A program made the translations under genes and the position numbers. The notes under the pieces were generated by a model. The model made no database searches. It had not been told where the DNA came from and saw nothing but the letters and a program-made list of their open reading frames with translations. This document shows positions 10,073-54,375 of a DNA stretch of 64,000 nucleotides, piece by piece. Source of the stretch: Eubacteriales Family XIII. Incertae Sedis bacterium. GTDB lineage: Bacteria > Bacillota > Clostridia > Peptostreptococcales > Anaerovoracaceae. The stretch spans positions 13,588-77,587 of the forward strand of contig JAISQM010000009.1 in NCBI GenBank assembly GCA_031274195.1. The letters run 5' to 3'. How positions within the stretch are numbered: the stretch's first letter is position 1; each line of letters starts with the position of its first letter.

Positions 10073-10153
10073 CTAAAGCAAATAATGCCGTGCGACAAAT
10101 ACGCGAAAAAACGGTTTGTGGCAAGGTTGCAGGAAGTAGCGGGAGGGAAGATT

Positions 10154-11008: not shown

Positions 11009-11017
11009 GGACGAAAA

Positions 11018-16511: not shown

Positions 16512-17378
16512 ATGGGTTTGATCTTACTTACGGAAGAAAACAAGTCGGCGTTTCTCAGTTATGTGCCGTCATATCTCCACGCGGAATTATCCGAACCGGA
16601 GTCGGTATCGATCGGCACCTTTGACGACGATTCCGGCATCGCGACCGGCGTGCTCGTGGGGAACGTATTCAACAACTGGGTCGAGATACTCTGGGTATAT
16701 GTGGCGGAGGAATACCGCGAGCACGGTTTGGCGCGGAGCATGCTCAGAGAGCTGATCGCCCATGCCGGCGATGTCCGTGATATAGACGGCATCACAGCTC
16801 AGCTCGGCGACAAGGACGCGCACATGCCGCTGTACAATCTTCTCCGAAGCGAACTTTTCGTCTTCCGCAACGAGGAAGATTCTATCTACACGCTGACCGT
16901 CTCGATGCTGACGGGCAATCCTTTCTGGAGCGACGCGGCGCATAAAGGCGGCTCGGAGGTGATGTCGCTCAAAGATCTGCCGACGTACATCCTCGATTCT
17001 TTTGAAAAGAACATTGCCGCATTACCCGAGGGCGTGCCGGTCAGCCGGCCCGTACCGTGGGACGACTGCGACCTGAATTTCAGCGTGGGATATCTTAAAG
17101 AGGACAAGATGAAAGGCCTGCTTCTCATCGCCCGCGAGGACGAGGATATGGAGCTGTCGTTCGCCTATGCCGACCCCGAGGAAAAGCTGGCGCTCGCGGC
17201 CATGTTGCGCGCGTCGGGAAACAAGGTGATCGAATCCATGCCCCCGGAAACCATGATATCGTTGACGGCACTGAACAGCGCTTCAGCTGCCATCGTTGAA
17301 AAATTATTCCCGGACATCGAGCGCAGGACAGTACTGCGAGCGATCCGGCCATTCGGCGTGAGAGGAGATATGCAATGA
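16512..17378 (+). CDS. Two-domain GNAT-like acetyltransferase, cassette copy 2
   Basis: 288 aa with the LWVYVAEEYREHGLARSMLREL motif. By eye about three quarters of residues match copy 3. RBS GAAAGGAGAA. Confidence 0.7.
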   Translation: MGLILLTEENKSAFLSYVPSYLHAELSEPESVSIGTFDDDSGIATGVLVGNVFNNWVEILWVYVAEEYREHGLARSMLRELIAHAGDVRDIDGITAQLGDKDAHMPLYNLLRSELFVFRNEEDSIYTLTVSMLTGNPFWSDAAHKGGSEVMSLKDLPTYILDSFEKNIAALPEGVPVSRPVPWDDCDLNFSVGYLKEDKMKGLLLIAREDEDMELSFAYADPEEKLALAAMLRASGNKVIESMPPETMISLTALNSASAAIVEKLFPDIERRTVLRAIRPFGVRGDMQ

Positions 17379-19753: not shown

Positions 19754-19866
19754 TTAAGCGCGATTATAGAGTAGTGTGTTGAAGCAGATTGTTCTTTTAA
19801 TAACATCCGTCCGGGATAACACTCTGTCTGTTATGATGCCGCAGTGTGTGGCGAGAAGGAGAAACT

Positions 19867-20733
19867 ATGGGATTGGTTTTGCTTACAGAAGAAAATAAAT
19901 CGGCGTTTATCGGTTATGTACCGACATATATACAATCGGAACTGTCCGAACCCGAAACTGTTTCGATAGGCGTCTTTGACGACAATTCCGGCATAGCGAC
20001 CGGCGTGCTTGTGTCGACGGTATTCAACAATTGGGTGGAGATCATCTGGATATATGTGGCAGAGGAAAGCCGCGAGAGCGGTTTGGCGCGGAGTATGCTC
20101 AGAATGTTGTCGAGCCACTCTTTCGATGTCCGGGATATAGAGGGTATCACAGCCCAGCTCGGCGACAAAAATACACACATGCAGTTGTACAATCTTCTCC
20201 GCAGTGAGGGCTTCACTTTTCGCAATGAGGAGGATTCCGTCTATATCCTGACCGTCGGTATGCTGACGGGCAATCCTTTCTGGAGCGACGCGGTAAACAA
20301 AGGCGGACCGGCGGTGATGGCGCTCAAGGAGTTGCCGTCCCATGTTCGCGACTCCTTCGAGAAACATATAGCCGCTTTGCCCGAAGGTGTGCCGGTCGGC
20401 AGACCCGTTCCGTGGGATGAATGCGATCTGAACTTCAGCGTAGGATATCTCAGAGAAGGTAAGATGACGGGGCTGTTGCTCATCGCCCGCGATGAGGGGG
20501 ATATGGAGCTGTCGTTCGCCTATGCCGAACCCGGAGAAAAGCTCGCGCTCGTGGCCATGTTGCGCGCGGCGGGCAACAAAGCGATCGAGACTCTGCCACC
20601 GGAAACCACGATATCGCTGACGGCGCTGAATGATGTGTCGGCAGCCATTGTTGAAAAAATATTCCCGGATATAACTCGCAGGACAGTACTTAGAGCGATC
20701 CGGCCATTTGGAGCGAAAGGAGATGCGAAATGA
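19867..20733 (+). CDS. Two-domain GNAT-like acetyltransferase, cassette copy 3
   Basis: IWIYVAEESRESGLARSMLRML motif. ATG 19867 follows GAAGGAGAA. Close paralogue of 16512. Confidence 0.7.
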   Translation: MGLVLLTEENKSAFIGYVPTYIQSELSEPETVSIGVFDDNSGIATGVLVSTVFNNWVEIIWIYVAEESRESGLARSMLRMLSSHSFDVRDIEGITAQLGDKNTHMQLYNLLRSEGFTFRNEEDSVYILTVGMLTGNPFWSDAVNKGGPAVMALKELPSHVRDSFEKHIAALPEGVPVGRPVPWDECDLNFSVGYLREGKMTGLLLIARDEGDMELSFAYAEPGEKLALVAMLRAAGNKAIETLPPETTISLTALNDVSAAIVEKIFPDITRRTVLRAIRPFGAKGDAK

Positions 20734-22337
20734 GCATGACACCTGAAGAATTGCAACGGGAAAGGCAACGCCGGGACTCATTGACGGTCGCTGAGCAGCA
20801 GGTGCAACAGCAACCTGTACAGCAATACACTATTCCCGATCTGACCGAAGAGCAGCATGAGGCATTACGGAAAAAAACATTTGAATTGAAAGACAGCGTC
20901 ATCGCCGAACAGTTGCGTCTCGGCATAATACAAACCGAGAATGTGAGGGAGATGAAAGCGGAACTCACCCTACTTTCTCCCCCGGCGAGTACTCTGCCCG
21001 CGATGCCGGTGGATGATGAACAAGCCAAAATGCTGAAACTGTCGGCGTCGAAGCGAAAGAAAGCTCGCAAAAGACAAGAGGATAACACGAAAAAAGCGCA
21101 GAGGCAAAACTATCAGTCGCCGACGGGGCAAACACTTCCTATGGCGGAACAGATAAAAAAACAAAAGCGTCAAGAAGCGAAACGCGGCCCGAGAGAAATA
21201 GAAAACTGGAGAGAGATTGGCTTAGATTCAACGGTTCTATATCATACCGATCTGTTCGACCCATCGTTCGACGTGAAGAAGGATACTTCGATAAACGTAG
21301 GCCAGATTCGGCAGGAGATTCAGACAGCCGAGGCGGTTTTGCGTCAGAAGGCCGACAGCAACGGGGAAGCTTTCAATCCTGAGGGAGAAGCCCGTTTCAG
21401 CGTTCTTCAGCAGACGACCGATGCGGCGAAGGCGGCATTGTACGCCGTCGTCGGCTCGCATGGCGTAAATTCAGACGATGGAACGCCCCTTCCCGAGGAG
21501 GAAGTTCTCAGATGTCGCGAGACGAAAGATGCGGCGATCGCCAAATATCGCGAGCTTGTTTGGAATCGCGGGATGCACGTAGCAAAACTCACTTACGAGA
21601 ATCTGCAGCAAAACGAAGCTTACCGGGAGCAGTACGCTTATCAGGTCGAGAGCTCGCGGTCAGGTTTATCGCGGGAACACGGCCTGTCTGAAGACACGCA
21701 AAGCAGGCTTGAAGCTGCAATAACGACCGCCAATACGGAGACAGACAGGACTCAAACGCGGCACCAACTTGATAAGAGGAGAAAGAACCTGCCATATTTG
21801 GATGAGTTGCGAGATTCCGGTATCGAGTACTCCTCTTACGGAGCAGCGGGGGTTCATATAGATCTCCTTCGGCTTAAGGCGGAACACGCTGATCGATACG
21901 CGGCGAATAAAGCCTTGTTCGATCGGATGTATGCGGAATTCCTCTCCGCTGAAAAGTATGTGCAGGAACGCGAGATGGCTGTAAAAGCGGTAGGGGGTGC
22001 GACCACGCTTGATGATGAGCTCTTTTCGGGTCAGACGGAAAACAATCTATATAATTACCTGGTTGACCGCAATCCCAAAATGGCTGCTGCGGATCATAGA
22101 GCCTCCGTCCTAATGCAAGCCATGACATATCTTCTGACCGGAAACGAAGATGGACTGTCTCCGGAGGGTAGGATTGCATTGGAAAGAGATTTCAATATCG
22201 TTACAGCGAAGCGGCAGGAGGAGAAAGACGCGCTCGCACGGCTTCAGGAGATGGATGAGCACAACGATCTCATCGCGCGCGCGGAGCGGGAGCGGCTCGA
22301 GCGGGATGCGCGGAAGCAGACATTGCCGCCCGAATAG
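20730..22337 (+). CDS. Large helical protein, cassette copy 3 (535 aa, lacks the C-terminal module of copies 1 and 2)
   Basis: The ATG overlaps the GNAT stop (ATGA). It shares KLSASKRKKARKRQEDN, GQTLPM and FDPSFDVKKDTSINV, and ends at ...QTLPPE, aligned with T(S/P)PTDP in copies 1 and 2. Confidence 0.6.
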   Translation: MSMTPEELQRERQRRDSLTVAEQQVQQQPVQQYTIPDLTEEQHEALRKKTFELKDSVIAEQLRLGIIQTENVREMKAELTLLSPPASTLPAMPVDDEQAKMLKLSASKRKKARKRQEDNTKKAQRQNYQSPTGQTLPMAEQIKKQKRQEAKRGPREIENWREIGLDSTVLYHTDLFDPSFDVKKDTSINVGQIRQEIQTAEAVLRQKADSNGEAFNPEGEARFSVLQQTTDAAKAALYAVVGSHGVNSDDGTPLPEEEVLRCRETKDAAIAKYRELVWNRGMHVAKLTYENLQQNEAYREQYAYQVESSRSGLSREHGLSEDTQSRLEAAITTANTETDRTQTRHQLDKRRKNLPYLDELRDSGIEYSSYGAAGVHIDLLRLKAEHADRYAANKALFDRMYAEFLSAEKYVQEREMAVKAVGGATTLDDELFSGQTENNLYNYLVDRNPKMAAADHRASVLMQAMTYLLTGNEDGLSPEGRIALERDFNIVTAKRQEEKDALARLQEMDEHNDLIARAERERLERDARKQTLPPE

Positions 22338-22409: not shown

Positions 22410-24212
22410 GTGGAGAATTTGAACAACATCAATTTGTTGCCATTTGAGAAGAATCGATATTATCCCGGAAAATTGCTCACCTCGGTCGATTTTCTTTCCG
22501 AGCAGATGTACATGAGTAATAAACGGCGGTTTATGAACGATCTGTTGTACGGAGCGGGTATCATATGCGGGTTGAATGTGAACAACCTCGACGATACTTC
22601 GCTTATGGTCGAGTCAGGCGTGGCGATCGACGGACTTGGACGTGAGATCGTTTTGGAAAATTCCGTTGTGCGTAAGGTTTCGGCGATCGATGGCTATGAT
22701 GAGACAGAAAGCGGCAGGTTGTTGCTCTGTATCCGGTACGACGAGGAAGATATCCAACCGGTATACGCGATCGGCGCCGCGGATAAGGCGAGCGGGCATG
22801 AGATGAACCGCACTCAAGAGGGCTGTAAGCTCTTTTTGACGGATGCGGATTCCCGGGTGTTGACGATTCCCGAATCCGGATTTTTGAGCTCCGCGACGAT
22901 TTACGCCGATTCGGATTATTCCGTGACGTTGGCGTGTCCGTCGGTCGTGCCGAGCGGGCATAACGTCCGCGTCGCGATCACCGTTGAGAAGCTGTCCAAT
23001 GAAAATTCCCCGATCGTCTTAAACGGCCTATTTGGTACACCGGCGTTCGTCGGTGCCGACGGGAAGCATGGTTTTGTGGCCGATATCTCGGAGTTGATGT
23101 TGCTCGCGGGAGAGCGCAAACAGTTTGAATATCATTTGACCGCGAGAGCCGGCGGTAAGGCCGACACGATGATACTGGGAAAGCCGGACGACATCGAGGT
23201 CTCCGTGAATAGTGAAAAGAAGACGATCTCCGGGAATATCATGTTGCACCTGTCCATTTCCCCGGAGAGCCCTCGGGAGATCATTGAGCGTGAATTGGCC
23301 AAGACCAGTCTGGAGGAACGCGCGCTCCACCGTTCGTATGAATATGTGACGTTGGCTGAGGTGACCATCGAGCGCAGCAGCACCACGGCCATCATCAGCG
23401 ACATCCGGGATGACGCGATCAGATACTATATCCCGACCATCGCGAATAACGCGCGTAGGCACGAATATTCCGAATGGTTTGAGACCGCGAAACACAAGGA
23501 GCGGGTGGGGGTGAGTGCCGCTACCACGACGGAGGTCGATCATTATCCGACGGTTCGGGAGCCGATCTACGCGACCGGTGTGTGTGAGATACCGCTTGGC
23601 ACTGAGTACAAGAAAGGCGAGATACATCTTTCCAATGAGGTGATTCACGGACTCGGCGGCGGGGATGTGCACGTTGCGGTCGGTTGCGAGTGTCTGGCTT
23701 ACGATGCCAAATTGGATAAACAGGCCAAAAATACGGTCTATGGCGATTCGACGTTTTTCAAGGCGGACGCACTGCCCATTCCAAACGCGGAGTTGGCTGT
23801 GCGCGTGATGAACGACCGCGGGAGCTTCATTGTAGGCGCGAAGCTGAACGCGCGCACGGATTTTGTCGTGCTGCTCGTGCGCTGGACGGCCACAAAGCTG
23901 CCGAGCGGCGAGGAACGCGGCGCGTTGACCAGATTCGGGAATGACGCGGCCATCATGCCGGCGGAGCCGACGATCGTCGTCGCGCCCAACGAGAGCCGGT
24001 TTATCGACGTCAAGTTCAAAAATATGACGCCGTGCGCGTTGGAATATCAATTGACGGAGAAAAATTCAGGTTCGATCACAGTTGATGGCATCTACACGGC
24101 TTCAAATAAAGAAGGGGTATATGAGATTCACATCTACAGTGCGGACAATCCATATATCTCCACATACGCTTATGTCGTGGTGAAGGAGAAAGACAGCGAG
24201 GATGGGAAGTAG
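22410..24212 (+). CDS. Hypothetical 600-aa soluble protein, first gene of the long array containing the contractile injection system
   Basis: GTG start after AAAGGCGG; no TM segment visible. The N-terminus (YYPGKLLTSVDFLSEQMYMSNKRRFMNDLLYGAGIICGL) and a beta-rich, Ig-like-looking C-terminus (YQLTEKNSGSITVDGIYTASNKEGVYEIHIYS) give no family I can name with confidence. Confidence 0.5.
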   Translation: MENLNNINLLPFEKNRYYPGKLLTSVDFLSEQMYMSNKRRFMNDLLYGAGIICGLNVNNLDDTSLMVESGVAIDGLGREIVLENSVVRKVSAIDGYDETESGRLLLCIRYDEEDIQPVYAIGAADKASGHEMNRTQEGCKLFLTDADSRVLTIPESGFLSSATIYADSDYSVTLACPSVVPSGHNVRVAITVEKLSNENSPIVLNGLFGTPAFVGADGKHGFVADISELMLLAGERKQFEYHLTARAGGKADTMILGKPDDIEVSVNSEKKTISGNIMLHLSISPESPREIIERELAKTSLEERALHRSYEYVTLAEVTIERSSTTAIISDIRDDAIRYYIPTIANNARRHEYSEWFETAKHKERVGVSAATTTEVDHYPTVREPIYATGVCEIPLGTEYKKGEIHLSNEVIHGLGGGDVHVAVGCECLAYDAKLDKQAKNTVYGDSTFFKADALPIPNAELAVRVMNDRGSFIVGAKLNARTDFVVLLVRWTATKLPSGEERGALTRFGNDAAIMPAEPTIVVAPNESRFIDVKFKNMTPCALEYQLTEKNSGSITVDGIYTASNKEGVYEIHIYSADNPYISTYAYVVVKEKDSEDGK

Positions 24213-25101
24213 CAACGCGGCCACCGCAATCAATGACTGCGACCGGGAGAATGTCGTCAGGGTTGACGATATGATGCTTAAATGCGTTTCGGTGATTCTT
24301 GAAACCGAGGCGAATACCGTCTGGAGTTGTCGGGATATGCAGGCGATCGGGCAACCATATTATACCTTGCTCATCGTCACGGACAGAGAGATCGCGCGCG
24401 TATTGGTCTCCGCTTTCGCCGCATCCGAGAAGGAAACGGGGGAACGCGCGTATCTGCGCAGTTTCCTGTGGGGCGAGGATATCTGCTATCTGTTCCCGTA
24501 CCGCAGGGAGCGGCGGCTCGCCGATTTCGCGGCCGGACAGATCACAAACCCGACGATCAGCGAGGAGATATGCGTCAACATCCTGCTCGCCTGTATGGAA
24601 TCATCACTGCCGTATCCGCTTCTGTTCCTCGAATTTGAGCAGGAGCTTGTGCATGTCGAGAAGGATAACAGCGTATACCTGACGACGGACTTCGATGTCT
24701 CTAAGTTGGACGCTTCCATAGATGAGTCGGATTGCGTGGTGCGGTGCGCGCGTACCATGCTTGACATTCTCAACATGAATCGCAAGAAGCGACTCAAAAG
24801 CCGCAAGCTGCTCTCTCGGAAGATAGAACGACAGGCGTATGCGCGGTTTTCCGAAGTATATCACGACATCAAACTCACGGTTCTGGCCGAGAAAAAGATG
24901 TCCATTCTTCGGCGGTTTTTCAAATTTTGCGGCGTACACAGGGATCGGATATTTCGGATCATACTCGTTCTCAGCGTCATATGTTTTGTGCTTGCGCTTG
25001 TGATGCTCATCAGCTACTTGATCTTCGGGGACTTTGGTCTCGGAAAAATTTTCGGTCACAGTTTGAATACCATCGGAACCGAACGCTTGAACGTGAAATG
25101 A
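24202..25101 (+). CDS. Hypothetical protein with a C-terminal TM anchor
   Basis: Overlaps the previous gene. Hydrophobic helix IFRIILVLSVICFVLALVMLISYLIF near the C-terminus. The start may be ATG 24271. Confidence 0.5.
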   Translation: MGSSNAATAINDCDRENVVRVDDMMLKCVSVILETEANTVWSCRDMQAIGQPYYTLLIVTDREIARVLVSAFAASEKETGERAYLRSFLWGEDICYLFPYRRERRLADFAAGQITNPTISEEICVNILLACMESSLPYPLLFLEFEQELVHVEKDNSVYLTTDFDVSKLDASIDESDCVVRCARTMLDILNMNRKKRLKSRKLLSRKIERQAYARFSEVYHDIKLTVLAEKKMSILRRFFKFCGVHRDRIFRIILVLSVICFVLALVMLISYLIFGDFGLGKIFGHSLNTIGTERLNVK

Positions 25102-25115
25102 AAAGGAATTGACTC

Positions 25116-27455
25116 TTGAAAAAAAATGTAATTTCAGTGCTCATCATATTGATCGTAATCGGGGTGTCCGCTTTTGCGCTGTGGCCGTTCTTTACGCCGG
25201 ATTTGAGCAAAGCGGGTATTACGTTCGCGAGCGATGAATCCGGCGACCTGTACCTGTCGGAGCGGCATGCGAATCATTCCTTTCTGTATAAGCTTGACGA
25301 CCGGGGCAGGGTCGAGCATATGTTGCGGTCGACAGATATGATCTATCAGGCCATAAATCTGGGAGATAAGATATATTTCCTGACGCTCCTGGGCGATCCT
25401 GCGGACAAATGGGAGCTTATGGAGACCGACACGAAGCTCAAAGGGGCGCGAAAAGTCGCGTCCGGAGGTTTTGACTTGATCGGCGAGGAAGTATCATTGT
25501 CGTCGGGCAACGGACGGGTGTTTTTGTCGGGTACCGGCACAAATGGCAAATCGCTCTGCGCTCTGATCTACACGCCGGATATGCCGATCGCCGAAAGCGA
25601 CGAGACGCAGACGAGCAAAGTACCCCTTAAGGGCATGGAAATCTTTATGCAGCCGACACTAACCGGTAATGAGGTCGCCACCGTTACTGTCTGTGACGGG
25701 GAGGCCATCATTGCGTTGCTCTCCGACGGAAGGATTGCGCGAATCACGAAAGACGATATACAATTCACGGAGATTATGTATTCGGATTCCCTGCTGAGAT
25801 GTGAAGACGGCACCGTTTCCGTGCTGAATACGGAGGCGCATGAGCTGTATACGATGGACGCTTTCCCGCAGTTTGACGTGAGCCACACCTACGATAGATT
25901 GGAGCATGTCCGGGGTTTTGCCCTGTGGGGAAATAATGCCTCCATCATGGCGGCCGATTCGGACGGGACGACCAACCTGTATCTTGCGGGTGCCGACACG
26001 CAGAGCGAGTGGAAGACCATGCCGCCGATAGAGGTGTCTTTCTCTGAGCGTATCCTCTTTGTCGATCACAAGCCGCAAGCGATCTGGATCACCGTCGGCG
26101 TGATTGCCGCGGGGCTCATCCTGTCCGCGATGCTTGCGATTTATGTGCGCAGACTCATCATCCGGGTGAGCGCGACATTCGCCGCGGTGGGTTGCGCGAT
26201 GCTCGCGGTCATATGTTTCCTCGTGTTCCAATCGACAGATGTGGTCGCTTCCGCCGTGCTCGATGCCGTTTCCGGAGAGGCGGTGCAAGAATACATCGCG
26301 CTCGAGGACGCATTGGCAAGTGTGACATTTTCTGCATTTCTTTATGGTCTCGTCACGCTTCTCGTCGCCATCGGGATCGCTTCCCTCTTTACGGCGTTGT
26401 CGCTTTGGCCCATGCGCGACCTGACACGGCGGCTCAACCGGTTTACTGAGGGCGATTTCTCGGTTGACGGTATCGTTTCCATAGAAGGAGATTTGGGTAA
26501 AATGAGCCGCGCTGTGATGGAGATGGGCGTATCGCTCTCCATCAAGCAATACGAAACGGATCGCATGATTTCTTCGTATTCGCGCTTCGTGCCGAGGGAT
26601 GCCGACAGGTTGCTCGAACGGGCGGGGATTATGGAGGTCTGCACCGGAGATGTGGCTGAGATCAACGAATACATCGCCATCGTTTCCGTCGAAAATCGCA
26701 ACGCCGTCATGCACTCTATGGACAGTCACGGTTTTATGGCCTTTGTGAACAGTTGCTTCACCTCTATTCTCGAATTTGCGAACAAGCGACGCGGCGCGTT
26801 GCTCTCCAGTGAATTTCTGACGACGCTTCCGATCCTGTTTTCAAAGCATTTGGGCGCGAAGGATGGGGATTCGATCCGCTTCGGTCTGGATCTGATCGAT
26901 CGTATGAGCGGCGCGGGCAGCGACCTTCCGACGCCCGATTTCTTCATACTGCTCCACAAGACGGATTTCCTTTACGGCATTGCGGGCACGGACGATAAGG
27001 CGTTTCCGTTTATCTCGTCGGCGGAGTTAAATTTCCTGTCCGGTTGCAACGCGCCGCTTCGGAAGCTCGGCATCCGCATGGCGGCCACCGAGCAATACTT
27101 CCACAGACCCACGGACAATGAATCCGAGAATCTGGAAAGTTCATGTACAAAACGTCACATCGGTTTGATTTCTTTCGCGGACGAATCGCGTGACTACAAG
27201 ATGTATGAGATACTCGACTGTCTTTCGGATAAGGAGCGCAATCTTCGTATAAGCTACGATGAAAGACTGCAGAACGCGATCGAGATGTTTTATCGCAACG
27301 ATTTCTATCCCGCGATGGTGGAGTTTTCCGCCATTCTGAAATTCAATCCCGGGGATGGACTCGTGCGGTGGTACGCGTTTGCCTGCGAAAAGTATTTCAA
27401 TGAGGGAGATCGAGCGGTGGTGAAACATCAGCTATTGGGCGTTGAGAGGATATAA
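25116..27455 (+). CDS. Membrane protein: extracytoplasmic domain, multi-TM region, HAMP-like linker, degenerate class III cyclase-like domain, TPR-like tail
   Basis: TTG start. N-terminal TM (VISVLIILIVIGVSAFALW), a TM cluster around aa 330-440, HAMP-like LWPMRDLTRRLNRFTEGDFSV, then a cyclase-like fold signature (SRFVPRD...IAIVSVENRN...ALLSSEF...LLHKTDFLYGIAG) that lacks the usual metal-binding Asp residues. Confidence 0.55.
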   Translation: MKKNVISVLIILIVIGVSAFALWPFFTPDLSKAGITFASDESGDLYLSERHANHSFLYKLDDRGRVEHMLRSTDMIYQAINLGDKIYFLTLLGDPADKWELMETDTKLKGARKVASGGFDLIGEEVSLSSGNGRVFLSGTGTNGKSLCALIYTPDMPIAESDETQTSKVPLKGMEIFMQPTLTGNEVATVTVCDGEAIIALLSDGRIARITKDDIQFTEIMYSDSLLRCEDGTVSVLNTEAHELYTMDAFPQFDVSHTYDRLEHVRGFALWGNNASIMAADSDGTTNLYLAGADTQSEWKTMPPIEVSFSERILFVDHKPQAIWITVGVIAAGLILSAMLAIYVRRLIIRVSATFAAVGCAMLAVICFLVFQSTDVVASAVLDAVSGEAVQEYIALEDALASVTFSAFLYGLVTLLVAIGIASLFTALSLWPMRDLTRRLNRFTEGDFSVDGIVSIEGDLGKMSRAVMEMGVSLSIKQYETDRMISSYSRFVPRDADRLLERAGIMEVCTGDVAEINEYIAIVSVENRNAVMHSMDSHGFMAFVNSCFTSILEFANKRRGALLSSEFLTTLPILFSKHLGAKDGDSIRFGLDLIDRMSGAGSDLPTPDFFILLHKTDFLYGIAGTDDKAFPFISSAELNFLSGCNAPLRKLGIRMAATEQYFHRPTDNESENLESSCTKRHIGLISFADESRDYKMYEILDCLSDKERNLRISYDERLQNAIEMFYRNDFYPAMVEFSAILKFNPGDGLVRWYAFACEKYFNEGDRAVVKHQLLGVERI

Positions 27456-27458
27456 ACG

Positions 27459-28682
27459 GTGAATGGGTTTTTCGGACCACTATTAAATGCGATACAAGTA
27501 CGATTCCTCTCGGTACTGACGAGGGTTCGTGTTTTAGTAAGCCCAACATGGTGGAAAACGAAGGGGACGGTCGCGCTTCGGGGTTTCTTTACGAAGTTGC
27601 TCGACATCAAGCCGCGCGACACGTCCGATTATTATTCCGTTCTGCGGTGGCAGATCAGCAAACGTCTCGCTTTCGCCCTGGTGGTCGTAATCGGCGTGGT
27701 CAGCATTTATTACGTGCTCGTTCTGTCTCCGATCGCGATCACGGGCAAGGCCGCCGGCAACGCTTCACTGCGCGTATACAAATACAATTCGCTCGCGATC
27801 CGTTTTTTCAGCGGCTCCTGCCGGATTGAGGCAAAGGGCGATTACATCGCCTATGAGGGCGCTGTCAAAAAAGGTACGGTGACGGGCAACGGACGTCTTT
27901 TCGACAAGGATGGCCGGGTGATCTACGACGGCGAGTTTGATAAAAATATGTATAACGGCACGGGTAAGCTGTATTATCCGAATGATGAGCTGAAATATAC
28001 GGGCGAGTTCACAAACAACGAGATGAATGGCAAAGGCAAGTTGTATTCTTCCTCCGGAGCGATCTCCTATGAGGGGGAATTCCTCAAAGGCAAGAAAAAC
28101 GGCGAAGGTGTCCTGTATAATGCTTCGGCAAATGAGGTGTATCGCGGCAATTTCGTGTTAGATGAGATTCAATACGAGGAATTCGTGGGGAAGACTGCGG
28201 AGGAAGCCGCGAAGATGTATCCCGGCGTGCAGGAGGTGTACTCGTCGGAAGATGAATTCACGATTTTGATGAAGGAGATCGGTGCCGTTACCAATATGAC
28301 GAGCGGAGACTCCAATCTCGAGGGCGAGGGGAAGATCAGCGGCATTACCGTGCTGAAAGACTATTTCGCGAAAGGCGGCAAATCGTACAAGAGCATCGCG
28401 GCCGTCACGGAGCTGCTCGGCCGGCCGGATTTCACCGGATACACCTACTGTATGCTGTCTGACGCTATCGCGATCAACGCGCTTTCGGACTCGCAAGGCA
28501 TCGGACCGGTTTCCCTGAGCGGCGTCAGCTTGTTTGATGAGGTCTACAATGTCGAAGATTACGACAAGAATGTCGAGATCTATATATATGCTTATAAAGC
28601 GGGAGACATTCTTTACACGTTTTATTGCGGGGATCCGCAGGATAAGAAGTTTCTCATGTATTCCGTCGAGGTGGGGAAATGA
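27459..28682 (+). CDS. TM protein with MORN repeats
   Basis: TM helix LAFALVVVIGVVSIYYVLVL followed by tandem MORN-like units (YEGAVKKGTVTGNG, YDGEFDKNMYNGTGK, YTGEFTNNEMNGKGK, YEGEFLKGKKNGEG, YRGNF). Confidence 0.7.
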   Translation: MNGFFGPLLNAIQVRFLSVLTRVRVLVSPTWWKTKGTVALRGFFTKLLDIKPRDTSDYYSVLRWQISKRLAFALVVVIGVVSIYYVLVLSPIAITGKAAGNASLRVYKYNSLAIRFFSGSCRIEAKGDYIAYEGAVKKGTVTGNGRLFDKDGRVIYDGEFDKNMYNGTGKLYYPNDELKYTGEFTNNEMNGKGKLYSSSGAISYEGEFLKGKKNGEGVLYNASANEVYRGNFVLDEIQYEEFVGKTAEEAAKMYPGVQEVYSSEDEFTILMKEIGAVTNMTSGDSNLEGEGKISGITVLKDYFAKGGKSYKSIAAVTELLGRPDFTGYTYCMLSDAIAINALSDSQGIGPVSLSGVSLFDEVYNVEDYDKNVEIYIYAYKAGDILYTFYCGDPQDKKFLMYSVEVGK

Positions 28683-30730
28683 AGCTGAAAAAAACGTTCA
28701 ATCGTATAATGGTCACGCTGCTTGTCACAATGCTGATCTCGGGCATGGCGTTGCTTGCTCCTAAACCTGCCTACGCCGCGACGGGCAGTCCTTTCACGCT
28801 CGCGATGGCGGAGCAGATGGCGCTTGCGTCGAGCTCGGAGATCAAAAAAATCTACAATCAGATACTGTTGAAGAAAATCAATTATACGGATGCGGTGACG
28901 TCGATCAACGCCAAGATGCGCAACAAGCGGACGCTCAGGTGGACGCCGTTGCTCTCTTTCAAATTCCCCGAGAAGCTCACTTTGTCGGATGAATTTGAGC
29001 TTAACGTGAAGCCGCAGGCCATGATGTCTGAGATTACGACTTTGCAGCATCAGATGAATGACGAGAGCTTTGCGGTGATCGCAAATGTGCGCACCGCGTA
29101 TTTCAAGGCATACGTCTTACAGGAAAAAAATGCGTTCACGCAGGATATGCTCGATGCCGCGACGAAGAATTTGGCGCGCAACAAAGCCCGTCTGCTCGCA
29201 GGGCAAGCGAAGCAGGCCGATATCGACACGATGGAGAAGACCGTCAAAAAACTGACGGAGGATGTCGCAAGGCAACTGCGCGAATTGCAGCTCGCCAAGC
29301 AGACGCTTTCGGACACCGTGAAGGTGGACGTGACCACGCAATACCGCTTTCTGAATCCGCTGAAGGACGCAGATATCACGCGCGATCAGTTGGAAGGCTT
29401 GATCGCGTATACGCTGTCCGTCGATCAGGGCGTATATGAGGCGCGAGCCGCGGAATCCATCGAGCTCATCAATCTCAATGTTGCGGAGAGCTTGATGCGC
29501 GGCAAATACGGCGGCGCGATGAATCGTCTCAATTCATTCATCACGGCCGCGCGGCAGGGGCAGGATGTCGATTATGCCGCATTTCAAATCCAGTACATGG
29601 CCATGCTGAACGATATCGACAGCAAATGGCAGGGCAAGTACAAGATTCTTTTCATCAAATTTCCGAAGGAATACCTGAAAGGGCAGATCGACGGTATCCG
29701 TTATATCGAGGACGAGCCGTATGCCCTCTACACGGCCTGCATGGAATACGCGGCGGCGAAGACCGACCGTATCGCCGCGGAATCCGACCTGACGAAGAAG
29801 ATCACGACGGACTTTGAGGCGCTTGTGACTGCGAGAAACGCGTCACAGTCCTTAGCCGATTCCGTGAAAGACGCGGAGACGGAGCTAAACAGACTCACCA
29901 TCCTGAACCGAGTCGGCAAGGCCGAGTATGAAGAAGTGAAAGGGCAACAGGACGATTATCAGGCGTTGCAGATCGACGCGTTTGATTCGCTTGCGACGTA
30001 TAATGACCTGTTGATCGCGTTTGATCGGCTGTGTTGCGGCGCCGTGTCGGTCTATTTTACCGGGACGAGCTTCAACTACGACGCGTCGGATAGCGGGCTC
30101 AGCTTCCCGACGGCGGATGGGCAGATATGGTATTACATCTACGGAGATGTGGCGGACATGACCTTCGTGTTCGGGTTGGATGTGCCCGATGACTTTGAAC
30201 CGGATGTGTCGGAATACGAAGTTTGGTATGAAAATCAGAATCTGAGCGGTCGCGTGGAGGCGGACAAGAGCTTCCGTCATCTCACGCTCGATTACGGTGA
30301 TTCACAGACCTTGAAAGTGCGATTGTTCGGTTCGGACGGCTTTGTCGCGGAATGCGAGATAGACACGACCGAAGCGCGCGGCGTCTTACCGTTGGAAAAC
30401 GGAGCGTCCGAGGAAGCTCCTGCGAATGCGGAGCAGACCATCGGCAGCTATACGGTGGAAACGCAGATTGTCGGTAACGCCAACACCTCTACGTTGTTAC
30501 CGGACTTCAATGCGGATATCGGCGTTGCTTCGTACCTGCTTCAATATAACGGTACGAATATCGGCTCCGATACACCGGTCGCGAAGGGTAAGAGCTTCAG
30601 CTACCTGTCATTGCTCGTAGGTGATCTCGCGGATGTCGATCTGCTCGTATACGATGCGAGCGGAAAACAGATTTGCAAAGCGTATTTCGTGGTGTCGGAC
30701 GGAACGATCCGAACAACGGACAGTATATGA
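28679..30730 (+). CDS. Secreted TolC/OEP-like coiled-coil protein with an extra C-terminal beta-rich domain
   Basis: Signal-peptide-like N-terminus (LLVTMLISGMALLAPKPAYAA). It then shows a pattern typical of outer-membrane-efflux-protein family repeats (FTLAMAEQMALASSSEIKK...; AYFKAYVLQEKNAFTQDMLDAATKNLARNKARLLAGQAKQADI). ATGA overlap with the previous gene. Confidence 0.6.
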   Translation: MKLKKTFNRIMVTLLVTMLISGMALLAPKPAYAATGSPFTLAMAEQMALASSSEIKKIYNQILLKKINYTDAVTSINAKMRNKRTLRWTPLLSFKFPEKLTLSDEFELNVKPQAMMSEITTLQHQMNDESFAVIANVRTAYFKAYVLQEKNAFTQDMLDAATKNLARNKARLLAGQAKQADIDTMEKTVKKLTEDVARQLRELQLAKQTLSDTVKVDVTTQYRFLNPLKDADITRDQLEGLIAYTLSVDQGVYEARAAESIELINLNVAESLMRGKYGGAMNRLNSFITAARQGQDVDYAAFQIQYMAMLNDIDSKWQGKYKILFIKFPKEYLKGQIDGIRYIEDEPYALYTACMEYAAAKTDRIAAESDLTKKITTDFEALVTARNASQSLADSVKDAETELNRLTILNRVGKAEYEEVKGQQDDYQALQIDAFDSLATYNDLLIAFDRLCCGAVSVYFTGTSFNYDASDSGLSFPTADGQIWYYIYGDVADMTFVFGLDVPDDFEPDVSEYEVWYENQNLSGRVEADKSFRHLTLDYGDSQTLKVRLFGSDGFVAECEIDTTEARGVLPLENGASEEAPANAEQTIGSYTVETQIVGNANTSTLLPDFNADIGVASYLLQYNGTNIGSDTPVAKGKSFSYLSLLVGDLADVDLLVYDASGKQICKAYFVVSDGTIRTTDSI

Positions 30731-30788
30731 TAAATAAAATCGGCGGAGATATGTAATGTTTTCGGAAATTCGCGGTATGTATTATTGA

Positions 30789-33494
30789 TTGAAAAGGAGA
30801 ATGGCAGTGAATCATTCTATGACGAAGAAAACGAATAAGAAGAATCGGTTGCGAAATCTCGTCATTTCGGCGATTGTGGTTGCGGCTGTCGTGATCGCGT
30901 ATGCGGTGCCGGGTCTCATTGAACGATCCAGCGCTCTGTGGAACGATGAGACCGCGGTTCACATCGATCCCTCCACGATCGAGAATGGGACGCTGATTAT
31001 CGGTACGCATCTGGTGCATATCAGCGCGCTCACTGATGATATTTACGAGATGGCGATCGAATCGGCCGGCGAATCCTCCCAGAGTCGGATCTATTACAAA
31101 TCCGAGCTGAACGACGGCGCGTGGTGCGATATCACGGAGGCAAATTCGCTCGCGGCGATATCCTCCGGTTATACGGATCCGACCGGGATGCAGCCACCCG
31201 TTGTGGCGAGCAACGACGATATCGCCGCATTGTTCTTCGAGTATCACACAAAATCGGACGGCATCACGTACGATTTACGCACAAACGCGGCGGTCAATAT
31301 TTTCGATACAAGCAATCCCTACGATTTGGAGTCCATGACCGAGCTTGAGCCGCTGAAAATGCAGTATGATCTGTATACGAATTCGCAGGCCGATACGGAC
31401 GATGGCGAAGAACGAATTGACCGGATCGATAAATTCTGGGCGACGAATGTTCGCTCGGCTGTGACGGACCGGGCGGATCAAAATATGTCTGCCCTGCAGC
31501 AGTATTTCCAGATCATCAGTCAGGAGGAGGAGGCCAAGGATCAAATGTCGGCGGTTCAGGGTGTCATGGGCGCCGTGGACGCTACGCGCCGCGCGGATGT
31601 GTTCTCGACGGTGGATCAGGCGCTGGGCGGCTTTATAGAAGAAATCGCGGGATACACGGAAGGCGGTCTGACCGACGCCGACCTTAAGAGTGCCTTAAAT
31701 GACAGTCTTGCGAATGTTCAGGTCTCGCTGAGCGAGCAAGAGGGCAAGCGCCTCGATGCCGGCGTTACGGTGCTTTCCTCCGTGCGGTTCGATGCCTCAA
31801 ACAGTTTGATCAGCAACGCCGCCGCTCAAAATTACGCGGCCTGCGATAAAGACGTATCGACGCTGACGGATCTGTCCAACATCGAAAACGGCTCTATTCT
31901 GAATCAGGCCTCGGAAGCGGAGTTGCTCAATACGACGCTCATTCCGAACGCGACCAACCGGTTGACACAGGGGCTTGAGGCGGGCGAGAACGCGCAGTAC
32001 AAAGCGGCGGTTTCCGCCAACTCCGCAGGCGCGACACTCAGAGGGATCGCTTCCGACAATCGTTCCACCCTAAATTCGTCGCGCGGCGAGCTCGAATCGT
32101 TCATCACCGCGTATACCAAGCGCATTGTGGCGGAGGATAGCATCACTTTCATTGATGAGCGTATCGACATGACGACGAGTTGGCTCGGACAGATTCCAAA
32201 CGATGCCTTTTTGTCGGATGCGGAGACGTGCGTAAACAGCCACATCGAATTCCTCAGCACGCTGAAACGCCAGATTGAAATAGCGCTCGGCGGCAGCGAG
32301 CTCGACCAATTGACGGAAGAAAAAGCGGCGCTTCAGACGGATTATCTGGCGGCGCTCGACGATAACGATCTGACGGGTGCCAAAGCCGCACAGGACCAAA
32401 TCGCGGACTTGGACGCGAAGATCGCAGCGGTTGAGAGTGAAACAAACGCGCAGATCTCGGATCTGGAGCAGCAGATTGCCGATCTCCAGGCTCAGATAAA
32501 TCAGACGAGCGATGCGGACGCGCTCGCGGCTCTGCAACGCGCGTTGGATCTGTTGAAAGCGCAATTGCGGGCGCTCTCGGCGACGCTGTCGCCGAATTCC
32601 GTCGGAAGTCTCGCGTCGTCCCTTCGCAGCAGCGCGTTGGGTATCATCGAGAACGGCGGCAATCTTACCGATCTCGATAATGCCATCGCATCTCTCGGGG
32701 AAATGATGGATCTGAATTTCAAGGTGATATTCCCCGCACTGAAGGATCTCTACGATGCGATGCAAAAGAAATACGCGCTCGAAGGCAATACCGCGTATGC
32801 CGATCAGATCAAGGCGGTAGAAGCGTTGATTATCAACAATCAGTCCGCTTACGACGCATCGTTGGCCGGCGGCAAGAGCGATTCGGACATAGGCGATATC
32901 GTCGGTGATTACTTCGATAATGCGGCCGCCGACGGGGCGGGACTCGGCGCGGGCACGGATACGGGAACGACCGGCTCGGGTCTCGGAAGTGCCGGAACCG
33001 GATCGTTGTCCGGCAAGGGTGCGATCGCGTACATCAACGCACTGAAGGAATATGCCGCCGCGACCGGCAGCGATACCGCTACGCAACTCATGAAAGCGGA
33101 AGCGCAGAAGCAGCTCGGACTCGGCAACAAGCTCGTATACAAACAGTTCGACAATCCGTCCGTGCAATATCTTCCTGTCACGGCGGTCAGCTACTGGTGC
33201 GGTCTGCGCTATGTGTGGAATCGCAACCTGAGCGAAGCGACGCTGACGCGCGGCACGGATTATTACGCGTTCACCATGTGGTCCGACACGGTGGTTCGCA
33301 GCCGAAACAAGGCCGATTCGGACAAGATGGACGCGATAACGGGCTTCCTTGGCGCCATTTACATTCCCGGTAGCTATACCGCCGCGACTTTCGAGTGCGA
33401 GCCCGTGTATTTGCCGGATTCCGATCTTGGCATCCTCATGAGCAAGGATATACAGGATACGTCGGATGAAATATTAGCATTGCTCATGCAATAG
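30789..33494 (+). CDS. N-terminally anchored long coiled-coil protein with a C-terminal copper-amine-oxidase-N-like (stalk) domain
   Basis: TM LVISAIVVAAVVIAYAV. A long heptad-like region (QISDLEQQIADLQAQINQ...LKAQLRALSATL), a Gly/Thr-rich linker, and a C-terminal YLPVTAVSYWCGLRYVWN...YIPGSY pattern. The start is uncertain (TTG 30789, ATG 30801 or GVG 30807). Confidence 0.55.
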   Translation: MKRRMAVNHSMTKKTNKKNRLRNLVISAIVVAAVVIAYAVPGLIERSSALWNDETAVHIDPSTIENGTLIIGTHLVHISALTDDIYEMAIESAGESSQSRIYYKSELNDGAWCDITEANSLAAISSGYTDPTGMQPPVVASNDDIAALFFEYHTKSDGITYDLRTNAAVNIFDTSNPYDLESMTELEPLKMQYDLYTNSQADTDDGEERIDRIDKFWATNVRSAVTDRADQNMSALQQYFQIISQEEEAKDQMSAVQGVMGAVDATRRADVFSTVDQALGGFIEEIAGYTEGGLTDADLKSALNDSLANVQVSLSEQEGKRLDAGVTVLSSVRFDASNSLISNAAAQNYAACDKDVSTLTDLSNIENGSILNQASEAELLNTTLIPNATNRLTQGLEAGENAQYKAAVSANSAGATLRGIASDNRSTLNSSRGELESFITAYTKRIVAEDSITFIDERIDMTTSWLGQIPNDAFLSDAETCVNSHIEFLSTLKRQIEIALGGSELDQLTEEKAALQTDYLAALDDNDLTGAKAAQDQIADLDAKIAAVESETNAQISDLEQQIADLQAQINQTSDADALAALQRALDLLKAQLRALSATLSPNSVGSLASSLRSSALGIIENGGNLTDLDNAIASLGEMMDLNFKVIFPALKDLYDAMQKKYALEGNTAYADQIKAVEALIINNQSAYDASLAGGKSDSDIGDIVGDYFDNAAADGAGLGAGTDTGTTGSGLGSAGTGSLSGKGAIAYINALKEYAAATGSDTATQLMKAEAQKQLGLGNKLVYKQFDNPSVQYLPVTAVSYWCGLRYVWNRNLSEATLTRGTDYYAFTMWSDTVVRSRNKADSDKMDAITGFLGAIYIPGSYTAATFECEPVYLPDSDLGILMSKDIQDTSDEILALLMQ

Positions 33495-33531: not shown

Positions 33532-34110
33532 ATGGCGGATTATTCAATCATATCGGATATCAGCGCACACATCGTGCGGACGCTCAGAGAGAAGATGTGC
33601 CCCGAGCCCATCCCCTCTCCGAACAACATCGATGTCTCGTCTCCGGCGGAGCAGGATGTTGACTACATTCTCGGTCTCTATCTCTACGATATCGCCGAGG
33701 AATTGAGCCTGACGACATCGCCCTTGGTCAGAGCCGGAGGGACGCGCCTGACGAAGCCGTCAAAGCCCTATGCGCTTTACTATATGCTGTTTATCAACGG
33801 TTCGTCGCAGATGGGACTGAAGGCGCATGACATCCAAAAGATCATCGGCCGGGCGGCGCAGATCGTCAATGACGGGAATGTGGTCGAACCGAGGGTCGTA
33901 CAACCGTGGCTCGAATTCGATGAGGCGCCGATCATAATTACACCGGCACGGATGCCGCTCGAGGAAAAAGTCCGCGTGTGGTCCGCGATCAATAAGCCGT
34001 ATCAGGTCAGCATGTTTTACAAAGTGGCACCCGTGATGCTGTCGAGCGAAGTCGTTGTGGATCCGCCGCGCGTAACGGAAGCCTTGTTCAATATCGATAT
34101 GGGGCAATAG
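33532..34110 (+). CDS. DUF4255 / Afp16(Pvc16)-like tail terminator-cap protein
   Basis: 192 aa. N-terminal ISDISAHIVRTLREKM... and ALYYMLFINGSS... match the DUF4255 pattern, and it sits directly upstream of the sheath as in many eCIS loci. Confidence 0.7.
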   Translation: MADYSIISDISAHIVRTLREKMCPEPIPSPNNIDVSSPAEQDVDYILGLYLYDIAEELSLTTSPLVRAGGTRLTKPSKPYALYYMLFINGSSQMGLKAHDIQKIIGRAAQIVNDGNVVEPRVVQPWLEFDEAPIIITPARMPLEEKVRVWSAINKPYQVSMFYKVAPVMLSSEVVVDPPRVTEALFNIDMGQ

Positions 34111-34129: not shown

Positions 34130-34942
34130 ATGGCAGATGTGACAATAACGCATCGAATAGATTTGGCCGTTTCATTTGTTGACAACATCTCGGGCGCGCC
34201 CGCGCGCGGGCATGTGTTGTTGAGCAGGAACGGCGCAATCGTGCGTTATCTCATGAGTTCTGATGGGATTGCACTGTTTTCGGATGTCGGTCGCGAAGAC
34301 TTCGTTTTGGGCATAAACGTATCGGGCTATGAATATGAGGAGTTGCAGGTTGAATACGCAAATCTCGACGAGGGCTTTCCGCTGATAGAGGTATCGCTGA
34401 TTCCGCAGGACACGCTCGGCGACGTCTATACGACGATCGACGGTACGCTTTCCGGTCTTATCGCCGCGGATGCGGTGTGCGTCGAAAGAACCGTGTGGTC
34501 TGTTTTGAGCGTCGATCAACGCAAAAGGTTGCTGACGGTGGAGAGCCAATACAAGAGAGAGATAGGCGGGAAATCCTATGGCATCATCGCGAAGGACAAT
34601 GAGAGCTATGCTCCCATTGCAATTATTAAGAAGATATCATACGGTATATATAAGATAGACTCCGTGCCTACGGAAGATATATTGGGGTTGCGTTTGGCAT
34701 ATCGCGTGGCGGGTCGTGTCCGCGACGGGACGTGCTTGCTTCGGCTCCCGCACAGATCAGGAAACGCAAATTGGATCATTCGTGCGGAGACGGAATCGGG
34801 AAATACATTCCGGACATTCGACCCGAGCGAAGCCGAACTAAGCACGGCCGGCAGGCGAATCGGCATAAGCGACATCATGAGCCGAGCAGCGCCTACCGCG
34901 AAAAACACAGATAAACACGACGCGGAAATGAAAGGAGGATAG
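34130..34942 (+). CDS. Hypothetical protein (CIS-associated, beta-rich N-terminus)
   Basis: 270-aa ORF between the cap and sheath genes. No domain recognised. Confidence 0.45.
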   Translation: MADVTITHRIDLAVSFVDNISGAPARGHVLLSRNGAIVRYLMSSDGIALFSDVGREDFVLGINVSGYEYEELQVEYANLDEGFPLIEVSLIPQDTLGDVYTTIDGTLSGLIAADAVCVERTVWSVLSVDQRKRLLTVESQYKREIGGKSYGIIAKDNESYAPIAIIKKISYGIYKIDSVPTEDILGLRLAYRVAGRVRDGTCLLRLPHRSGNANWIIRAETESGNTFRTFDPSEAELSTAGRRIGISDIMSRAAPTAKNTDKHDAEMKGG

Positions 34943-44541: not shown

Positions 44542-44961
44542 ATGATGGAAGACAAAAGTAATTCTTTTCTGGGAAGCGGGATGAAATTTCCGCCACAGGC
44601 CAATAAAGCGACGGGGCGGTTCTCCGTTTCCGAGGGGGAACAGAGCGTGAAGGAGTCCGTGTATCTGATCATGATGACCGCCGTTGGAGAGCGGGAGCTT
44701 GCGCCGCACTTCGGCAGTAGGCTCACGCGTTACGCGTTCATGGACATCAACCTCACTCATTTGAGCATCATGCGCCGCGACATAGCCGAGCTCGTCATGA
44801 GTCAGGAACCCCGCATTTCGAATGCGGATGTGGAGATCGACGCGGACAGCAGAAATGACTGTTTGATTGTGAATATTCGGTATAGGGTGGCACAGACGAA
44901 TTCGGTGGACAATTTCGTATTCCCGTTCTACCTGAAAACCTCGGCGGAGGAGGAAGAATGA
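44542..44961 (+). CDS. Baseplate wedge protein gp25 / GPW family
   Basis: GSGMKFPPQ......SVKESVYLIMMTAVGERELAPHFGSRLTRYAF matches the GPW_gp25 signature. Confidence 0.85.
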   Translation: MMEDKSNSFLGSGMKFPPQANKATGRFSVSEGEQSVKESVYLIMMTAVGERELAPHFGSRLTRYAFMDINLTHLSIMRRDIAELVMSQEPRISNADVEIDADSRNDCLIVNIRYRVAQTNSVDNFVFPFYLKTSAEEEE

Positions 44962-50116: not shown

Positions 50117-50173
50117 ATATCCTATGGTTAATCGAAACTATTAATACGCGGCTCCGAGGTGGGAGGAACATTT

Positions 50174-54337: not shown

Positions 54338-54375
54338 ACTTCATGGCAGATATACGCGAGTATGGAGGAATGAGA

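Follow-up and report, generated by a model that had tools for sequence, protein, structure and literature searches.

A conserved six-gene membrane and envelope module next to the contractile injection system operon of Clostridia

Six tightly packed genes lead into a contractile injection system operon

The stretch of DNA analyzed here (hereafter, the window) spans 64,000 nucleotides (nt) of an Eubacteriales Family XIII. Incertae Sedis bacterium (contig JAISQM010000009.1, positions 13,588 to 77,587) and carries an operon for a contractile injection system (CIS). Immediately upstream of that operon lie the six genes that are our subject, termed g1 to g6 and given in window coordinates. All are on the + strand: g1 (22410-24212, 600 amino acids (aa)), g2 (24202-25101, 299 aa), g3 (25116-27455, 779 aa), g4 (27459-28682, 407 aa), g5 (28679-30730, 683 aa) and g6 (30789-33494, 901 aa; the public gene call starts ten codons later, at 30819, and gives 891 aa). 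The junctions between them measure, in order, -11, +14, +3, -4 and +58 nt, and a further 37 nt separate g6 from the opening gene of the CIS core, a Cis16/Pvc16_N (DUF4255) cap gene on the same strand (33532-34110; Pfam PF14065, E = 1.3e-28). A scan of the window sequence found no intrinsic-terminator-like hairpin in any gap from g1 through the cap gene, and promoter-like matches do not exceed their frequency in shuffled sequence.

An earlier sequence-only reading of the window had singled out these genes as a tightly packed, same-strand set abutting the DUF4255 gene, with five of the six products carrying a signal peptide or transmembrane (TM) segments. Both statements are borne out by the open reading frames (ORFs) and by hydropathy, which gives TM segments in g2, g3, g4 and g6 and a signal peptide in g5. 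Single-sequence scans of the six window proteins against Pfam, NCBIfam, PHROGs and PDB returned little beyond MORN repeats and a CIS13 match. Since these scans were mostly uninformative, ortholog profiles were needed for the analyses described below.

The module is conserved beside CIS genes in several families

We scanned one genome per species and found relatives of g6 in 121 species; 80 loci were fetched, from Family XIII, Oscillospiraceae, Lachnospiraceae and Gracilibacteraceae. Cultured carriers are among them, namely Hungatella hathewayi WAL-18680 (locus L050), Oscillibacter valericigenes An890 (L057) and Bengtsoniella intestinalis. Relatives of g6 make up at least 242 clusters (E <= 1e-5), and every cluster with a source name is from Clostridia. 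The corresponding counts for g1 (262 clusters, E <= 1e-3) and g5 (318) are similar, which fits families restricted to this module.

In tblastn searches of the 80 species loci with the window proteins, the order g1-g2-g3-g4-g5-g6 and the common strand were recovered wherever the contig allows. Among the 64 loci whose upstream DNA is long enough, the full set of six occurs in order in 61, and the other three lack only g3. Downstream, a cap, sheath or tube gene follows g6 directly (median distance, 28 nt) in 64 of the 68 loci with at least 3 kb of sequence there; counting L078, which has baseplate genes at this place, CIS genes are directly downstream in 65/68. Median intergenic gaps within the module are 12-33 nt across loci. 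Orthologs share 30-60% identity with the window proteins, and protein sizes are nearly fixed except for g3, with ortholog start codons set mechanically. A gene order that recurs in this way across 80 species loci is beyond chance. The earlier reading had proposed looking for these genes beside CIS loci in related Clostridia, and they are indeed found there.

The first gene encodes a fibre-like protein with a CIS13-type N-terminus

Residues 12-144 of g1 match NCBIfam NF053767, the CIS13 family, over profile positions 4-135 (E = 6.1e-23), and the same profile is matched by 40 of the 40 g1 orthologs tested (best E = 1.1e-29). The score of the window protein, 81.7 bits, is below the curated equivalog cut-off of 370 bits because only the first third of the 392-position profile is covered. 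By this comparison, g1 has the N-terminal domain of CIS13 on a different body and is not an equivalog. The ~150-residue domain was recovered by an exhaustive search in 3647 clusters (50% identity), and it forms the extreme N-terminus of all 150 matches listed.

The g1 gene lies 26 kb upstream of cis12 (50159-51277), at the head of the accessory block, and not behind cis12 in the core operon. In the window, the gene after cis12 encodes an AAA ATPase and not a fibre, making g1 the only fibre-like (Cis13-like) protein of the system. Two statements of the sequence-only reading must therefore be withdrawn: that the canonical Afp1-16 core set includes none of the six proteins, and that the CIS has no recognizable tail fibre. 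Its view of g1 as a soluble protein of beta-rich character holds. Hydropathy indicates no TM segment in the window protein and none in 37/40 orthologs, and the AlphaFold2 (AF2) monomer model is beta-rich (mean predicted local distance difference test score (pLDDT), 74.8).

In this model, the body of g1 is a chain of immunoglobulin (Ig)-like beta-sandwich domains, the last of them BIG2-like. Foldseek matches are to Ig-like and BIG2 phage-tail proteins; they are generic, and these fold searches gave no decisive match to solved CIS fibres. Conservation among orthologs is highest at the two ends of the protein (column identity 0.75 and 0.57-0.71), with a variable middle. With both ends conserved, g1 is unlike a hypervariable receptor-binding fibre tip. 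Given its CIS13-type domain, g1 is the most plausible candidate for physically joining the other module proteins to the baseplate. The idea of anchoring, which the earlier reading had derived from the supposed lack of a fibre, is thus strengthened rather than weakened, despite the mistaken premise.

g2 and g3 are a tail-anchored protein and a variable HAMP protein

The g2 protein was described earlier as C-terminally anchored, and this topology holds across orthologs. Hydropathy gives a single TM segment at residues 253-271 of 299, and the positive-inside rule, applied to 38 orthologs, puts the ~250-aa N-terminal domain on the cytoplasmic side (lysine plus arginine residues before/after the first TM segment, 3.8/1.4). 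Neither Pfam nor PDB searches returned a match to g2, and no Pfam family is common to its orthologs. A kinase-like stretch with a non-significant PDB match (E = 0.16) was not relied upon.

For g3, hydropathy gives four TM segments. The order of parts is an N-terminal TM segment, a variable beta-propeller-like ectodomain, three TM segments, a HAMP domain directly behind the last TM helix, and a conserved cytoplasmic C-terminal domain. A profile of g3 orthologs compared with PDB matches MCP/HAMP proteins (E = 2e-6) and, in the ectodomain, WD40/propeller proteins (E = 2e-4). Pfam HAMP is found in 15/37 orthologs (best E = 2.7e-10), with the window protein alone falling below threshold. The earlier description of g3 as a polytopic HAMP protein is thereby upheld, and its second half, a degenerate cyclase-like domain, is not: the best profile match, to the class III cyclase Ma1120, is non-significant (E = 0.18-0.26), the metal-binding catalytic Asp positions are replaced in the alignment, and none of the 37 orthologs matches Pfam Guanylate_cyc. 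The C-terminal domain may possibly be a dead cyclase fold. Overall, g3 stands out in the set as variable and dispensable, ranging from 460 to 918 aa across loci, with short forms that have no ectodomain; the gene is absent in, for example, L059 and L079.

g4, g5 and g6 are exposed outside the cytoplasmic membrane

The host lineages are monoderm: their wall is thick, and they have no outer membrane. LytR_cpsA_psr wall genes are found near the locus. On the basis of hydropathy and the positive-inside rule, g4 has one TM segment (residues 70-88) with its N-terminus inside, and its MORN repeats and C-terminal domain are outside. The repeats are recognized by Pfam PF02493 (E = 6.6e-13; 48.2 bits against a cut-off of 22.5 bits) and by comparison of the g4 profile with MORN proteins in PDB (E = 3.7e-21), in agreement with the earlier assignment of g4 as a TM MORN-repeat protein. 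The same two methods place nearly the whole of g6 outside, behind an N-terminal TM segment at residues 26-44. Lysine plus arginine counts before/after the first TM segment are 3.4/1.2 for g4 orthologs and 4.2/1.0 for g6 orthologs.

Three parts can be distinguished in g6: a strongly conserved globular domain (residues ~50-190), a long coiled coil (~500-650) and a Cu_amine_oxidN1-like C-terminal domain, with PF07833 (Cu_amine_oxidN1) present at the C-terminus of 7/25 orthologs. These features match what was said of g6 from the sequence, a TM-anchored coiled-coil protein with a stalk-like C-terminal domain. In PDB, the g6 profile finds only generic coiled coils, of the HA2 and spike HR1 types, and it gives no identity for residues 50-190.

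The g5 protein has a Sec signal peptide ending AYA|A. An AF2 monomer model built with 32 sequences (pLDDT 79.7) was compared with PDB using Foldseek, and the top 44 matches are all outer membrane factors of the TolC/OprM/CusC kind (E = 8.5e-10 to 4.5e-5, target TM-score 0.46-0.62, ~430-560 aligned columns). Thus, g5, described earlier as secreted and TolC-like, is both. The whole TolC protomer fold is represented, with two alpha-hairpin repeats and long helices of TolC size (63 and 66 residues). In the model the beta-hairpins are short (residues 85-101 and 318-345, or 17 and 28 residues, with strands of 2-4 residues), and the C-terminus carries two extra Ig-like domains. For the window protein, Pfam gives no match at E <= 0.01 and TIGR01844 a score of 16.7 bits, against a cut-off of 225 bits. 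Many orthologs carry a precomputed PF02321 match and the NCBI name 'TolC family protein'.

TolC-type trimeric barrels have a lumen of ~3.5 nm. Set against the diameter of a CIS tube, this dimension rules out g5 as a conduit for the tube, and we therefore do not propose it as the firing channel.

The topologies of the six proteins are complementary. On the cytoplasmic side lie g1, the N-terminal domain of g2 and the C-terminal domain of g3, and outside lie g4, g5, g6 and the ectodomain of g3. The membrane or envelope location originally assigned to five of the proteins is confirmed across orthologs by the charge counts and the positive-inside rule.

These assignments bear on one way to account for the module, namely that the CIS is a classical extracellular one. 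In that case g1 would be a short tail fibre that binds a conserved target glycan, and g2-g6 would be an apparatus on the producer side for exit of the particle, by local opening of the wall or controlled lysis. The fibre-family N-terminus of g1 and its Ig-like/BIG2 domains, as in phage adhesins, speak for such a view, and so do the extracellular-CIS hallmarks of the core: a cap, an AAA ATPase and a gene of tape-measure size. Among the window genes scanned (some small ORFs lay outside the scan), no holin or endolysin domain was seen, and hence another exit route would be needed. However, Pfam, NCBIfam and PHROGs scans of g2-g6 give no hydrolase, holin or pore-forming signature, and a TolC-type barrel is far too narrow for the particle. 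Moreover, g1 overlaps or abuts membrane genes rather than cis12, and its tip is conserved, not variable. We consider this explanation unlikely.

The module resembles known membrane anchors in theme

In Anabaena, the thylakoid-anchored CIS (tCIS) has a Cis13 trimer whose N-terminal domain binds the baseplate and whose C-terminal TM helix anchors the particle, together with a Cis12 extension and a Cis19 crown (PMC8894136). The window shares with this system a fibre-like protein with an N-terminal baseplate domain as the putative membrane link (g1 is CIS13-type, and Cis12 is CIS12_fam), and g1 together with the tail-anchored g2 mimics the Cis13 layout of a baseplate domain plus a C-terminal TM helix. 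It differs in that g1 has no TM helix and carries 450 residues of Ig-like domains in place of a helical stalk, and in that the presumed anchor is spread over five or six proteins and is directed to a monoderm's cytoplasmic membrane. A Cis19 gene is not recognized here, apart from a weak N-terminal likeness in g1 (E = 0.58).

The haloarchaeal CIS that resembles a type VI secretion system (T6SS) is anchored by Hbor_38620, a single protein with six TM segments and a cytoplasmic domain of ~150 residues; in haloarchaea, a membrane-bound, contact-dependent mode is correlated with the presence of a conserved membrane protein immediately upstream of the CIS core (PMC11566945). Both systems have genes for membrane proteins upstream of the core, and both have two cis11 genes. 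The haloarchaeal anchor is one protein, whereas the module has six genes and large extracellular parts. No sequence relationship of g1-g6 to Hbor_38620 turned up in our searches, which included no direct comparison.

In Streptomyces coelicolor, CIS firing requires CisA, a bitopic protein with a cytoplasmic N-terminal part and a periplasmic substrate-binding-like domain, whose predicted partner is Cis11 (PMC12237407). This system is alike in its Gram-positive host, in having a bitopic membrane protein whose N-terminal part is cytoplasmic, and in the absence of a conventional tail fibre. CisA is a single protein, unlike the CIS13-type connector and the TolC-fold, MORN and coiled-coil proteins seen here, and as described its architecture resembles none of g1-g6 (PMC12237407).

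Relative to the TolC/outer membrane factor family (PF02321; PDB 1ek9, 7ng9), g5 has the whole protomer fold and helices of TolC length. It differs in its monoderm host, its short beta-hairpins, its two appended Ig-like domains and the absence of a pump or adaptor gene from the operon.

The job we propose for the module, that of an envelope-spanning complex docking a baseplate, is also that of the TssJ-TssL-TssM complex of T6SS and of the anchor of the Bacteroidota T6SSiv, in which a fibre-like protein named 'Cis13' (Aasi_0556) has been proposed to help anchoring (PMC12210884). The envelope here differs in being monoderm, and Pfam, NCBIfam and PHROGs scans of g1-g6 found no homology to TssJ, TssL or TssM. 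The same work reports gut CIS without tail fibres (PMC12210884).

Overall, the module is a non-homologous variant of the membrane-anchor theme seen in tCIS, T6SSiv, haloarchaeal T6SS-like systems and CisA, sharing with them only the CIS13-type domain. Within the literature found, the tail-anchored g2, the HAMP sensor and the MORN, TolC-fold and coiled-coil stalk proteins are new to CIS. The claim that this gene combination had not been described before agrees with our literature search, of incomplete coverage, which found no earlier account of the module.

A proposed docking or trigger complex across the envelope

Gene order, conservation, domain identities and topology are observations, and the standing of the module as a conserved, CIS-coupled unit is well supported; the mechanism considered here is a proposal. 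We put at about even the chance that g1-g6 constitute a trans-envelope docking or trigger complex of the Clostridial CIS, in which g1 links the baseplate to g2-g6. In such a complex, g1 would act in the cytoplasm as a fibre-like connector, with its CIS13-type N-terminus at the baseplate's periphery and its conserved Ig-like C-terminus bound to a partner that is itself conserved, in the simplest case the cytoplasmic domain of g2. The membrane would be crossed by g2, g4 and g6, and g4, g5 and g6 would form a structure extending into, or across, the thick Gram-positive wall, while g3 would be a HAMP sensor with an optional, tuning role. Such a complex would keep the loaded CIS at right angles to the cytoplasmic membrane and relay an outside signal, such as contact or envelope stress, to the baseplate to cause contraction. 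In effect, the function of a tail fibre would be split across the membrane. Firing might be outward and contact-dependent, as in T6SS and the haloarchaeal system, or inward and suicidal, triggered by stress, as with CisA. Docking is favored by precedent, in that the membrane-bound CIS of haloarchaea and Streptomyces are marked by conserved membrane proteins encoded beside the core (PMC11566945, PMC12237407). The recurrent gene order, the operon-like packing, the CIS13-type domain and conserved ends of g1, the complementary topologies, the likeness of g1 plus g2 to Cis13 of tCIS, the similar family sizes and the lack of a holin or endolysin domain among the window genes scanned also count in its favor.

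Since Cis13 of tCIS, TolC, and coiled coils of the HA2 and spike HR1 types are all trimeric, an arrangement of six trimeric 'legs' on a six-fold baseplate would be geometrically natural; this we infer from analogy only. A bolder version of the proposal, which we put forward tentatively as a possibility that probably overreaches, is that Clostridia of guts and termite guts (Lachnospiraceae, Oscillospiraceae and Family XIII) carry a membrane-anchored, contact-dependent injector, a Gram-positive counterpart of T6SS with an independently evolved docking complex. Here the CIS13-type connector, tail-anchored adaptor, MORN protein, TolC-fold trimer and coiled-coil stalk would make up six trans-wall 'legs' that hold the baseplate and relay contact with a target across the thick peptidoglycan.

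Several points weigh against docking. The N-terminal 50 residues of g1 are modeled with low confidence. Ig-like/BIG2 domains such as those of g1 are characteristic also of genuine phage fibres that bind a target, and its likeness to solved tCIS proteins is weak (All3314/Cis19, E = 0.58). With a lumen too narrow for the CIS tube, g5 can be no simple conduit. The protein contacts, the oligomeric states and the mode of firing are all things that we infer.

The remaining points concern the three loci at which g6 is not directly followed by CIS genes. In L069 (12848-22414), g1, g2, g4, g5 and g6 are intact and no CIS gene lies within 10 kb; behind g6 are genes for an OmpR-type regulator, a MacB-like ABC transporter, MarR, DUF885, GlgB and a phosphotransferase. 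In two mouse-gut Lachnospiraceae, L048 (12909-22697) and L049 (~12810 to the locus end), the gene behind g6 exceeds 3000 codons and encodes an RHS toxin with a Sec signal peptide, 15 RHS repeats and a PT-HINT pretoxin domain. The fetched DNA ends inside this gene, so that whether these two loci represent a module without a CIS is not decidable. At these three loci the module may function with no CIS next to it, or together with a CIS encoded at another site. The sequence-only reading had tied the module to the CIS and counted its occurrence without CIS genes as evidence to the contrary; the tie stands for 65/68 loci, and L069 is in part such a case.

It is from these loci that one could argue for an independent envelope system, e.g. 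a TolC-fold wall-spanning export or surface structure, which travels with the CIS on one mobile island. TolC-fold proteins do occur in non-CIS operons of monoderm Clostridia, an example being C. difficile CD630_24080, which is encoded in an RND operon and reported to be wall-associated (PMC11170357). Against this, the module is joined directly to CIS genes at nearly all loci, in several families, and its opening gene carries a CIS-specific domain. Pfam and NCBIfam scans of g1-g6 revealed no ABC, RND, MFS, MFP or HlyD-type partner domain. Neither the genes upstream of g1 nor the sequences that flank the module and CIS are conserved; what is kept is therefore the pair, g1-g6 plus the CIS, and not a larger island. 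Independence of this kind strikes us as very unlikely.

The CIS operon and its neighbouring genes

The CIS operon behind the module is complete according to Pfam, NCBIfam and the ORFs, with the cap gene at 33532 followed by genes from 34130 to 54295, all on the + strand. Between cap and sheath lies a gene for a 270-aa protein (34130-34942) with no Pfam or NCBIfam match and no TM segment, which is kept in 55/80 loci. Next come the sheath (35062-36768; Pfam), two gp19-type tube genes (36823-37377 and 38050-38556; Pfam), a probable tape measure of 808 aa and two CIS_tube proteins (Pfam). A small ORF between the tube genes (37400-38050) has a zinc-ribbon-like CPECGH motif. The genes that follow encode a split VgrG (42486-43703 and 43710-44522; NCBIfam VgrG_rel), a 139-aa protein judged by eye to be gp25-like (44542-44961), and two consecutive Cis11-like baseplate proteins, both matching TIGR02243 (44958-47990, 1010 aa; 48017-50116, 699 aa). 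The baseplate wedge of Streptomyces likewise has two Cis11 copies. Behind these are Cis12 (at the coordinates given above; NCBIfam CIS12_fam), the AAA ATPase (51566-53890; Pfam) and a Gly/Pro-rich protein of 128 aa (53909-54295), by eye a probable PAAR/DUF4280-like protein, for which a PDB search gave nothing significant.

The start of the operon varies in some loci. In nine from Lachnospiraceae (L046, L053, L056, L058, L059, L061, L064, L070 and L077), the cap and 270-aa genes were not detected between g6 and the sheath, and the sheath gene begins no more than ~500 nt past the g6 stop codon. Locus L078 (2581-13681) comes from a cultured strain, Agathobaculum sp. LCP25S3_E8. Its g6 match is confined to the first 388 residues, and the next genes are those for CIS_tube, VgrG and Cis11, with no cap, sheath, tube or tape-measure gene present. 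L078 was considered as a locus without CIS and rejected on account of these baseplate genes behind the truncated g6; the arrangement is probably a deletion.

Upstream of g1 are three paralogous tandem pairs (10085-13213, 16512-19663 and 19846-22337), each consisting of a GNAT-like protein (288-307 aa) and a large protein (535-762 aa) without a Pfam match. Identity among the pairs is 58-77% for the GNATs and 28-34% for the large proteins, and a KLSASKRKKARKRQ motif is common to at least the 762-aa and 535-aa ones. A similar pair of a GNAT and a 1016-aa protein lies upstream of g1 in L082, and GNAT matches are found there in L013, L016, L026 and L037. It is possible that these pairs are CIS cargo with partner proteins. 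In L081 (1-9871, Oscillospiraceae), a HisKA/Response_reg two-component pair is immediately upstream of g1, with genes for two AAA ATPases and a DUF4280 (PAAR-like) protein farther upstream.

Directly behind the CIS of the window is a partner-switching set (54343-58227), composed of a STAS anti-sigma antagonist (54343-54675; PDB match, E = 1.4e-10), a GNAT (54696-55628) and a dCache-HAMP-PP2C(SpoIIE)-HATPase_c_2 protein (55585-58227). This set is a possible regulator of the locus. Its presence is one reason to ask whether the module is instead a firing adaptor, responding to stress or a signal, for a cytoplasmic CIS that kills its producer, as CisA might suggest. The outer parts would then do no more than sense envelope damage, with g3, through its HAMP domain, and the partner-switching genes in a regulatory role. 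The HAMP sensor g3 with its variable ectodomain, the STAS and dCache-HAMP-PP2C-kinase genes just past the CIS, the two-component system next to g1 in L081, and the precedent of CisA in another Gram-positive are all in keeping with this. On the other side, g3 is missing in 3/64 loci, so sensing by g3 is not essential, and a set of five large structural proteins, with ~2000 residues outside the cytoplasm, looks like more than a sensor would need. The adaptor explanation also overlaps the docking proposal, and the two are hard to tell apart from sequence. As a distinct account of the module, we judge it improbable.

Implications for CIS in Gram-positive bacteria

At issue is how a contractile injector that is assembled in the cytoplasm acts across a thick Gram-positive wall. 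Membrane-bound CIS have so far been studied in diderm bacteria, cyanobacterial thylakoids, S-layer archaea and Streptomyces. For surveys of CIS, the position of g1 offers a correction, in that a fibre-like gene can sit outside the core CIS operon. The TolC fold is found here outside efflux and in a monoderm, which would be a new role. The module gives a concrete parts list for the wall question, with a defined topology and a candidate baseplate link in g1, in at least 121 species abundant in animal guts. Because cultured carriers exist, the question is directly testable.

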